This document shows, piece after piece, positions 2,069 through 3,014 of a DNA stretch of 5,340 nt. A program made the translations under genes and the position numbers. Under the pieces are notes generated by a model. The model was not told the DNA's origin. It worked only from the letters and a program-made list of their open reading frames with translations, and made no database searches. The stretch comes from a virus (Duplodnaviria; Heunggongvirae; Uroviricota; Caudoviricetes). The DNA lies in the IMG/VR virus record IMGVR_UViG_2521172589_000005. One strand, 5' to 3'. Each line of letters starts with the position of its first letter. Within the stretch, counting starts at the first letter, position 1.

Positions 2069-3014
2069 ACGCCCACTGGTTATAAACACACAGCTTGCGA
2101 TGAAGATTGGCTTAAATGAAGCTATTGTGTTGCAGCAGTTGCATTACTGGTTGAGAGATACCAATTCCGGCATGGAATGTGATGGTGTTCGCTGGATTTA
2201 CAACACAACGGAACAATGGCTGGAACAGTTCCCATTCTGGTCAGAGTCAACGTTAAAGCGCGCGTTTGCAAGTCTGAAAACGCTGGGGCTTTTGCGTTGT
2301 GAAAAGCTCAATAAATCAAAGCGCGATATGACCAATTTCTACACGATTAACTATGGGAGCGAGCTTTTAGATGATGGCAAATTGAGCGAATCCATCGGTT
2401 CAAAATGCGCCGCTCCATCAGGTCAAAATGACACGATGGAAGAGGTCAAAATGAAACGCTCCATTGGTTCAAAACGACCCAATGTCATCGGGTCAAAATG
2501 GCCCGATGATCCTACAGAGAATACAACAGAGATTACTACAGAGAATAAAAACACTTTTCGTCCGGAAGCTTCGCAACCGGACCCGCAGACGGCTGAACAG
2601 GATTTTTTAATCCGGCACCCTGGCGCAGTTGTGTTTAGTGCGAAAAAACGCCAGTGGGGTAGCCAGGAGGATCTGGCGTGTGCGCAGTGGATATGGGGGC
2701 GGATCGTGGGTCTCTACGAACAGGCCGCCAGTGATGATGGCGAGATCATGCGACCAAAAGAGCCTAACTGGACTGTCTGGGCCAATGATGTGCGCACAAT
2801 GCGGATGCTGGATGGCAGAAGCCACAGACAAATTTGTGAAATGTTTGGTCGGGTACAGCGGGATCCATTCTGGGTAAAAAACATCATGAGCCCGTCAAAG
2901 CTCCGCGAAAAATGGGACGAACTGGTCATCCGCCTGGGGCGTTCACCTGTACAGCGTTGTGTTAATCATATTTCTGAACCGGATACAGAAATTCCGCCTG
3001 GTTTCAGAGGATAA
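2049..3014 (+). CDS. Phage replication initiator: lambda-O-like N-terminal domain, repeat-encoded linker, DnaT-like C-terminal domain
   Basis: 339-codon frame opens with TTG at 1995; the first ATG (2049) gives a 321-aa product and overlaps the upstream stop by 20 nt. The N-terminus (SESTLKRAFASLKTLGLLRCEK) has the winged-helix pattern of lambda O-type organisers. The C-terminus ends ...VNHISEPDTEIPPGFRG, closely matching the C-terminal tail of E. coli DnaT as I recall it (...[16 protein letters not shown]). The middle encodes IGSK peptide repeats that are iterons at the DNA level. Confidence 0.8.
   Translation: MSLLFAERPLVINTQLAMKIGLNEAIVLQQLHYWLRDTNSGMECDGVRWIYNTTEQWLEQFPFWSESTLKRAFASLKTLGLLRCEKLNKSKRDMTNFYTINYGSELLDDGKLSESIGSKCAAPSGQNDTMEEVKMKRSIGSKRPNVIGSKWPDDPTENTTEITTENKNTFRPEASQPDPQTAEQDFLIRHPGAVVFSAKKRQWGSQEDLACAQWIWGRIVGLYEQAASDDGEIMRPKEPNWTVWANDVRTMRMLDGRSHRQICEMFGRVQRDPFWVKNIMSPSKLREKWDELVIRLGRSPVQRCVNHISEPDTEIPPGFRG
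2391..2500. repeat. Iteron array: five direct repeats, consensus about TCCATCGGGTCAAAATG, at 22-25 bp spacing, inside the initiator gene (putative prophage ori)
   Basis: Core GGT(T)CAAAA(T/C)G at 2397-2407, 2421-2430, 2444-2453, 2466-2476 and 2491-2500. Four copies carry the extended CCAT(C/T) left arm. Arrangement parallels the lambda ori iterons located within gene O. Confidence 0.7.
2511..2560. repeat. A/T- and purine-rich tract with three ACAGAGA repeats at 12-bp spacing, just right of the iterons (candidate DNA-unwinding element)
   Basis: ACAGAGA at 2514-2520, 2526-2532 and 2538-2544, followed by AATAAAAACACTTTT. Position relative to the iterons mirrors the lambda ori AT-rich region. 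Confidence 0.5.

Follow-up and report, generated by a model that had tools for sequence, protein, structure and literature searches.

Introduction

The replication origin of bacteriophage λ is situated midway along the O gene, where dimers of the O protein bind 19-bp imperfect inverted repeats. Two of these iterons together with the adjacent A/T-rich tract, which is strongly strand-asymmetric, suffice for unwinding (PMC7466680, PMC5043065). RepA_N plasmids carry iterons in the centre of the rep gene, as inverted repeats converging towards a poly-A sequence; the linker encoded by the origin is dispensable, and the portion of the protein that is variable and host-specific is its C-terminal domain (PMC5703833, PMC7145576). 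Here we describe an element of this general type in a 5,340-nucleotide (nt) stretch of viral DNA (IMG/VR record IMGVR_UViG_2521172589_000005; hereafter "the window"). Positions 2370-2608 of the window very probably constitute the vegetative replication origin of a lambdoid Escherichia coli prophage with Qin-type immunity, located inside the part of the initiator gene that encodes the linker of the protein. The gene itself (2049-3014, plus strand) encodes 321 residues and is labelled "hypothetical protein" in RefSeq. An origin that is embedded in its initiator gene and is composed of iterons and an A/T-rich tract is of a textbook kind; what is different here is the specificity module.

As in λ and other lambdoid phages, including the six-iteron Stx phages 933W and P27, the proposed origin is placed centrally in the initiator gene, downstream of an operon resembling pR-cro-cII. 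Its parts also succeed one another as in oriλ: tandem dyad iterons 20-24 nt apart, with a TCAAAAYG centre common to both, then an A-rich tract with purine asymmetry and, after that, a GTC...GAC palindrome. The last iteron, the A-rich tract and the sequence TTCGTC...GAC can be aligned collinearly between the two origins (λ, ACAAAAGACACT...ATTACAAAAGAAAAAAG; window, ACAGAGAATACAACAGAGATTACTACAGAGAATAAAAA). Indeed, the entire right half of the element, comprising a tract of 12-nt repeats, the palindrome and the protein's C-terminal domain, aligns collinearly with oriλ and λ O.

Anatomy of the proposed origin

A repeat search of the window identified five direct repeats of 23 nt that start at positions 2393, 2416, 2439, 2462 and 2486, and that are therefore spaced 23, 23, 23 and 24 nt apart. 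Tandem Repeats Finder detects both this array (2391-2464, period 23) and the 12-nt repeats that follow it (2514-2547, period 12). The five iterons, all on the plus strand, are iteron 1 (CATCGGTTCAAAATGCGCCGCTC, 2393-2415), iteron 2 (CATCAGGTCAAAATGACACGATG, 2416-2438), iteron 3 (GAAGAGGTCAAAATGAAACGCTC, 2439-2461), which has weak arms, iteron 4 (CATTGGTTCAAAACGACCCAATG, 2462-2484), with the dyad arms CATTGGTTC and GACCCAATG, and iteron 5 (CATCGGGTCAAAATGGCCCGATG, 2486-2508). The arms of iterons 4 and 5 are 89-91% complementary, the best dyad being that of iteron 5 at 91%. A degenerate copy on the same strand, iteron 0 (GATGATGGCAAATTGAGCGAATC, 2370-2392), lies in register 23 nt upstream of iteron 1 and is better kept in relatives (loci L004 and L005 have GGTCAAAGTGA), such that the array may be counted as six iterons with a spacing of 23, 23, 23, 23 and 24 nt. 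The core sequence GKTCAAAAYG occurs five times in the 5,340 nt, always within the array, whereas 0.07 copies are expected and none of 200 shuffled sequences yields five.

The array is followed by three 12-mers, ACAGAGAATACA, ACAGAGATTACT and ACAGAGAATAAA (2514-2549, plus strand), which repeat the unit ACAGAGAnTAnn at an exact spacing of 12 nt. Together with the adjoining AAAAACACTTTT, which extends to about position 2559, they form the presumed DNA-unwinding element. The 12-mer tract has an A+T content of 67%, compared with 52% for the open reading frame, and is strand-asymmetric, with 50% A and 17% T. Among the 40-mers of the reading frame it has the lowest stability (97th percentile of the window), and the segment that comes after it is among the most stable in the window (1st-5th percentile of stability). 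A GATC sequence, the site of Dam methylation, is present at 2508-2511, where the last iteron gives way to the first 12-mer. Of 70 non-redundant homologous loci, 24 have a GATC within the 16 nt that precede the first 12-mer. In Enterobacterales and Pseudomonas it occurs mostly as ...GATCTTACAGAGA, and loci from Gram-positive hosts have ACCAATACCAGAGA at this junction.

The stable segment contains an imperfect, G+C-rich palindrome (GTCCGGAAGCTTCGCAACCGGAC, 2560-2582) that is the counterpart of GTCAGAGAATTCTGGCGAATCCTCTGAC in λ. Relatives from Edwardsiella and Scandinavium carry a palindrome nearly identical to the λ form. Among 16 enterobacterial versions of the GTC...GAC palindrome, the pair 9-15 covaries (GC in 10, CG in 4 and UA in 2) and is never unpaired. 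Pair 4-20, by comparison, is mostly an A-C mismatch, and thus a strict hairpin is doubtful. Further examples are located at 1263-1290 of L003, 2070-2097 of L100 and 1995-2022 of L136.

Selection acts on the DNA of the repeats

The iterons and 12-mers (2370-2549) encode residues 108-167 of the initiator, which fall inside a segment predicted by AlphaFold to be disordered (residues 84-175; predicted local distance difference test (pLDDT) below 50) and that is encoded in part by the origin. Repeats in such a linker could reflect selection on the peptide. The peptides read from iterons 1-5, however, are SIGSKC, PSGQND, EEVKMK, SIGSKR and VIGSKW, and all three reading frames are used. Likewise, 53 of 55 homologous loci have their iterons in more than one frame. 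Because the iterons are read in three frames, the 23-nt period cannot be a peptide repeat.

For the 12-mers, which 40 of 60 non-redundant homologous loci contain (their background frequency being 0.14 per kb on each strand), we examined codon choice. T-E-x-T tetrapeptides were selected by their amino acids alone in 60 non-redundant homologous genes (n = 95). The first threonine is encoded by ACA in 94 of the 95 instances, although ACA makes up only 26% of the other threonine codons of those genes. Similarly, the glutamate codon is GAG in 94 of 95 (background 47%), and the last threonine is ACA or ACT in 92 of 95 (background 47%). Moreover, in five loci from Staphylococcus, Bacillus, Lactobacillus and Paenalcaligenes, 12-mer copies spaced 9-11 nt apart lie in different reading frames, the distance between adjacent copies being 10-11 nt.

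The third codon positions of 60 distinct close relatives have a diversity of 0.022 within 2369-2608, as against 0.152 elsewhere in the gene, a difference of approximately 7-fold (Mann-Whitney p = 8e-11). This zone of suppressed variation is likely the full extent of the cis-acting origin. Mixed reading frames, fixed codons and low third-position diversity together indicate that the repeats are DNA elements rather than peptide repeats.

An earlier note on this DNA had placed five iterons at 22-25 bp spacing and an A/T-rich tract with three repeats at exact 12-nt spacing between 2391 and 2560, in the linker of the initiator. The five copies, the exact phasing of the three 12-mers (2514-2549) and the position of the array in the linker are all borne out. 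The iteron spacing proves narrower than was stated, and a sixth, degenerate copy precedes the five. The A/T-rich tract is real, yet its richness is moderate, and the constrained region continues past 2560 to about 2608, taking in the palindrome. The "IGSK repeats" that the protein was said to contain are found in three of the five copies and not in the other two, where the 23-nt spacing shifts the frame.

A scan of viral contigs with the N-domain alignment returned only near-identical E. coli loci, which served for copy-number variation and diversity. Among close relatives the number of 12-mers ranges from two to five, and in Enterobacterales it always changes in steps of 12 nt. L095 carries four 12-mers and L100 five, and protein P0100 has an additional TENT. 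At the iterons, the 290-residue protein P0018 lacks exactly 31 residues (93 nt) relative to residues 116-146 of the window protein (2393-2485), a length equal to the separation of iterons 1 and 5. This deletion leaves about one good iteron and looks like the product of unequal recombination between iterons. By analogy with λ ori deletion mutants, the variant may mark an origin-defective prophage. More generally, the 93-nt collapse between iterons 1 and 5 and the gain of a fourth 12-mer look like slippage or recombination at repeats.

Conservation among homologues

A tblastn search with the N-terminal 114 residues retrieved 155 phage records from Proteobacteria, Firmicutes and Bacteroidetes, and a scan of one genome per species contributed 80 further loci. 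Wherever the end of the N-domain could be anchored, the order of parts is the same: 3-7 iterons, a short junction, and 2-5 copies of CAGAGAYTAC. The iterons of these homologues consist of dyad arms around a CAAAATG or CAAATTG centre. This layout is found in phages or prophages of E. coli, Klebsiella, Erwinia, Pantoea, Xenorhabdus and Pseudomonas, as well as in those of Comamonas, Acinetobacter, Staphylococcus, Bacillus, Lactobacillus and Listeria. Iteron spacing across the homologous loci is 23 nt in 108 cases, 24 nt in 26 and 22 nt in 14.

The arms of the iterons differ by clade. They read GGGTCA..TGGCCC in Escherichia, GGGGCA..TGCCCC in Pantoea, Klebsiella and Pseudomonas, GGGACA..TGTCCC in Pantoea allii and GTATCA..TGATAC in L156, and in the consensus an average of 4.2 out of 6 arm positions pair as a dyad. 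The mean difference among loci is 0.14 for the iteron centre and 0.50 for the arms, and arm divergence tracks divergence of the N-domain (Mantel r = 0.50, p = 2e-4). The informative contrast is that between the variable arms on one side and the fixed centre and fixed 12-mers on the other.

The 12-mers extend beyond the recognizable protein family. When viral contigs were scanned for two adjacent 12-mer copies, at least 120 loci were recovered, 114 of which were usable. The N-domain is detectable by the hidden Markov model (HMM) of the family in 42 of these 114 loci. Among the matches listed, the other 72 (from the L176-L295 set) combine other iterons and N-domains with the same ACAGAGAYTACW 12-mers and with assorted C-terminal domains, and initiators of many lineages encode ...TEITTETT... 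at the position of the 12-mers. Two of the N-domains that escape the HMM align to the family with hhalign probabilities of 77% and 65%, and are probably remote homologues on the strength of these profile matches. The simplest reading is that all belong to a single old superfamily whose 12-mers have persisted after protein similarity ceased to be recognizable. C-terminal domains also vary among loci with a common N-domain, and include the λ O-C type, DnaB_2, the DnaT domain and Phg_2220_C. Since the 12-mers are accompanied by varied iterons and varied C-domains, they are tied to neither a particular iteron nor a particular C-domain. We also considered that the N-domain itself reads the 12-mers; this idea is weakened by the 72 of 114 listed loci that lack an HMM-detectable N-domain and whose iterons are unrelated.

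A BLAST search of L181, another 12-mer-bearing origin, against the phage collection gave no match. A tblastn search of plasmids with the Staphylococcus-type N-domain returned mostly phage-like "plasmids" of about 40 kb, with no clear evidence of use as a plasmid replicon. Within E. coli, 1859 of 5426 complete genomes contain 80% or more of the segment 2370-2610; in the records listed, the matched feature carries the label "hypothetical protein".

The initiator protein and its C-terminal tail

The initiator matches PHROG 391, "replication initiation O-like", with an E value of 3.1e-92 (residues 17-321 on positions 11-298 of the 298-position profile), and Pfam and NCBIfam searches revealed no family for it. 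Its N-terminal domain, a predicted winged helix (approximately residues 1-104; 2049-2360, plus strand), is presumed to bind the iterons. Comparison of this domain with residues 1-115 of λ O by hhalign gave a probability of 0.1%, and there is no match to PF04492 (Phage_rep_O). The AlphaFold model of the protein is poor overall (pLDDT 55); it has a winged-helix pattern at residues 14-101 and a helical C-domain. In this low-confidence model, the top fold matches of the N-domain are the N-terminal domains of RepA_N proteins, and none of 10 diverse N-domains matched the RepA_N domain PF06970 at E values up to 5. The N-domain family is large, with 10,333 cluster representatives at E ≤1e-3 (clusters of 50% identity), and has no Pfam model. 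Many representatives (P0126, P0128, P0131 and others) are 390-880 residues in length and align with the query twice, over separate stretches; some relatives thus seem, from these alignments, to carry two N-domain copies.

The C-terminal helical domain (approximately residues 183-295; 2595-2933, plus strand) is a homologue of the λ O C-domain and is modelled with a pLDDT of 63-84. BLASTP aligns residues 147-294 to λ O with 34% identity over 148 residues (E 3e-27). A search of PDB sequences with the initiator returned only matches to the C-terminal tail described below and a spurious match to YteR.

This tail, VQRCVNHISEPDTEIPPGFRG (2949-3011, plus strand), matches the last 21 residues of E. coli DnaT (residues 159-179), the PDB matches being the DnaT chains 2ru8, 6aep and 9zbt_D. 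The match is the source of the annotation "Primosomal protein I" on relatives. For residues 178-321 there was no match to PF17948, the domain through which DnaT binds DNA, and the score with PRK02854, the NCBIfam model of DnaT, is 16.3 bits (cut-off, 201), such that the likeness to DnaT is confined to the last 21 residues. In DnaT, the tail has a poorly defined function and contributes to cooperative binding of single-stranded DNA (PMC4132743), and the recruitment of DnaB/DnaC by DnaT is still described as unknown (PMC13377028).

No gene for P, DnaC or DnaB comes after the initiator gene; the next gene encodes a DUF977 protein. Among 55 non-redundant loci whose initiators have a tail with GFRG (from L015-L175), a λ P homologue is next in none. 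Conversely, in the three loci where a P homologue is next (L175, at 3001-4697, L099 and L172), a W-containing tail stands in place of GFRG. P0034, a relative with 70% identity, ends in ...DWNSADGWEDVL, similar to the ...DWIYGVDL of λ O, and is followed by a Phage_lambda_P gene. The DnaT-like tail and the λ P gene are thus mutually exclusive in the loci examined, where the count cannot be read as a probability because the loci are related. With this tail, the initiator might gain access to the host loading pathway and dispense with P.

The prophage and its gene order

The window is the early region of an E. coli prophage, is 99.9% identical to NZ_CP061101.1, and comes from an insertion site that adjoins ompW. 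A DicA-like repressor gene (848-1255) lies on the minus strand. A pR-like promoter on the plus strand (TTGACT-16-AATAAT, 1278-1305; 10 of 12 consensus matches) precedes a DicC/Cro-like gene (1336-1563), which is succeeded by a YdaT/CII-like gene (1547-2068) and by the initiator gene. The DUF977 gene (3055-3477, plus strand) is Ren-like and occupies the slot of λ P. Judging by gene order, rightward transcription from the pR-like promoter passes through the origin, and the array is located 1.1 kb downstream of this operon promoter. A promoter scan of the window found only the pR-like promoter, and none within the origin.

Homologues of ydfB and ydfC are present at 1-760 of the window, and those of dicB and ydfD farther upstream in the genome (flank L002, 5233-6679). 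We take the immunity region to be of the Qin type, with dicA, dicC and dicB homologues as in Qin of K-12, and the prophage looks like a more complete relative of that defective prophage. At the other end, the type I toxin gene hokD begins at 5256-5340. Downstream of the replication genes, RefSeq annotates two pseudogenes (3568-3891 and 4333-4698), one with an internal stop and the other with a frameshift and a stop. Escherichia phage HannyBb, an isolated phage, carries the same module at 97.5% identity, and therefore the module serves a working virus.

Alternative explanations

Could the repeats have a role other than that of an origin? A low-complexity linker peptide (IGSK..., TENTTEITTEN) generated by in-frame duplication, with the DNA having no function in cis, would account for the predicted disorder of the encoded segment and for the in-frame position of most 12-mer copies, which encode T-E-x-T. 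This explanation is scarcely credible when the five iterons use three frames, some 12-mer copies are mutually out of frame, TE.T codons are essentially fixed while other threonine and glutamate codons of the same genes are not, and synonymous diversity collapses over the whole region. Alternatively, the iterons might be a control site, active in autoregulation, copy control or handcuffing, exclusion of related phages or partition, with the true origin elsewhere. Plasmid iterons do double as control elements, and cloned λ ori/O fragments are reported to inhibit related phages (PMC3349717). Nonetheless, we regard this as highly unlikely. The array always precedes an unstable 12-mer tract, in the order seen in oriλ and in alignment with it, and a position within a gene 1.1 kb past the operon promoter is a poor location for a repressor operator. 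The same layout is a proven origin in λ, Stx phages and RepA_N plasmids (PMC7466680, PMC5703833), and neither the window nor the replication-gene neighbourhood of related phages contains a second periodic repeat array beside an A/T-rich tract.

Another alternative concerns the 12-mers, which could be a recombination joint between an origin-specific N-module and a host-specific C-module that allows initiator halves to be swapped. Homology does break at the 12-mers, in that Klebsiella phages match the query only to position 550, where the 12-mers end. Phages with a common N-domain differ in their C-domains, and the same 12-mers adjoin unrelated iterons. On the other hand, selection for evolvability is a weak force beside the near-absolute fixation of codons across phyla whose phages are unlikely to recombine, and a patch of homology would require neither the conserved copy number (2-5) nor the conserved phasing of 11-12 nt. 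Within the gene, thermodynamic stability is also lowest in this tract, and its strands are asymmetric in composition, as in the unwinding region of λ (PMC5043065). We therefore judge a joint to be an unlikely explanation of the 12-mers, although roles in recombination and in unwinding may coexist.

Proposed mechanism and significance

In the preferred reading, in which 2370-2608 is the origin, dimers formed by the predicted N-terminal winged-helix domain would bind the six semi-palindromic iterons, in each of which dyad arms flank an A-tract of sequence CAAAATG. A spacing of 23 nt slightly exceeds two turns of the helix. Binding would bend the DNA and, through this phasing and the bends at the A-tracts, wrap it into a complex resembling the O-some. 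Rightward transcription from the pR-like promoter might assist, an activating role being suggested by λ (PMC5043065). The stored strain would then open the purine-asymmetric ACAGAGAnTAnn tract, which is bounded distally by the stable, G+C-rich palindrome. Finally, the λ O-like C-domain and the DnaT-like tail might bring in the host machinery for loading the DnaB helicase, with no need for a phage P protein.

Several points weigh against the assignment. Origin activity, iteron binding and unwinding are argued by analogy, and no experimental evidence for any member of the family was found in the searchable literature. Iterons 0 and 3 have poor dyad symmetry, and the A+T content of the 12-mer tract, at 67%, is not extreme. 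The covariation of iteron arms with the N-domain is also expected from shared ancestry alone. No DnaA boxes or integration host factor (IHF) sites are present in the origin, and their counts in the window are at the chance level. With no DnaA or IHF sites and no encoded loader, the loading step is left unexplained. Lastly, the prophage may be decaying or defective despite its intact origin.

A more speculative idea concerns the 12-mers and the tail. The ACAGAGAYTACW sequence could be more than a stretch that melts readily, namely an ancient, sequence-specific element for opening or helicase loading, common to an entire superfamily of phage initiators in Proteobacteria and Firmicutes and read, probably in single-stranded form, by a conserved partner; the E. 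coli lineage could have copied the tail of DnaT in replacement of λ P, thereby plugging into the PriA/PriB/DnaT-DnaB/DnaC pathway. We offer this proposal tentatively and consider it rather doubtful as it stands. Neither the 12-mer nor the DnaT-like tail is described in the searchable literature, which leaves out older subscription papers, and thus a prior description is possible. Searches of that literature for origins in DnaD-like or replisome-organizer phage genes likewise returned nothing relevant.

Recognition of this origin type permits the annotation of origins and initiators in a large share of enterobacterial prophages, and the element would represent a new replication-specificity (incompatibility) class among lambdoid phages. 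Conservation of the 12-mers at the DNA level offers a defined sequence for the study of phage origin opening. The mutual exclusivity of tail and P is a natural experiment on helicase loading that bears on how a DnaT-type tail might recruit the host loader. Both the cross-phylum 12-mer and the DnaT-like tail are interesting leads.

Comparison with known systems

The earlier note had called this arrangement a λ-type origin within an O-like gene, and had tied that reading to conservation of the repeats in homologous initiator genes. The repeats are conserved across many taxa at the same position in the gene, and the λ-type architecture is supported by this conservation, by constraint at the DNA level, by covariation of arms and N-domain and by collinearity with oriλ. 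Features of a λ-type origin that are present include a location within the initiator reading frame and between its domains, at least four dyad iterons, a strand-asymmetric tract on the promoter-distal side and a C-domain of the λ O family. Those that are absent are an N-domain of the PF04492 type and a λ P gene immediately downstream.

The iteron sequence and the domain composition of the initiator had also been taken to differ from those of λ, and each of these claims is half correct. The iteron arms do differ (GGGTCA...TGGCCC here, TCCCTCA...GAGGGA in λ), whereas the TCAAAAYG centre is the same as in λ iterons. Likewise, the N-domain has no detectable sequence similarity to that of λ O, whereas the C-domain is plainly its homologue. 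Two other differences from λ involve the A-rich tract, which consists of three defined ACAGAGAnTAnn 12-mers where λ has a degenerate A-run, and the extreme C-terminus, which is DnaT-like and has no P gene next to it, in contrast to the λ protein with a terminus of its own type. E. coli DnaT shares its last 21 residues with the initiator and nothing else.

RepA_N plasmids such as pSK41 and pTZ2162, together with RepA of the Vibrio PLE, provide the closest structural matches to the N-domain, as judged from the low-confidence model. Central semi-palindromic iterons with inverted repeats that run towards a poly-A tract, and an origin-encoded linker, are found here as in those replicons. Unlike RepA_N proteins, the initiator gives no match to PF06970, belongs to phages and prophages rather than plasmids, and has a λ O-like C-domain instead of one that is DnaD-like and binds DnaG.

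The 12-mers resemble the 13-mers of oriC and RK2 and the DnaA-trios in being short repeats that recur at about one helical turn in the melting region. In those systems, the exact sequence of the repeats matters beyond their A+T content (PMC5043065). The sequence of the present 12-mers (ACAGAGAYTACW) is different from all of these and, instead of being specific to one replicon, has been kept in several families of phage initiators and in different bacterial phyla.

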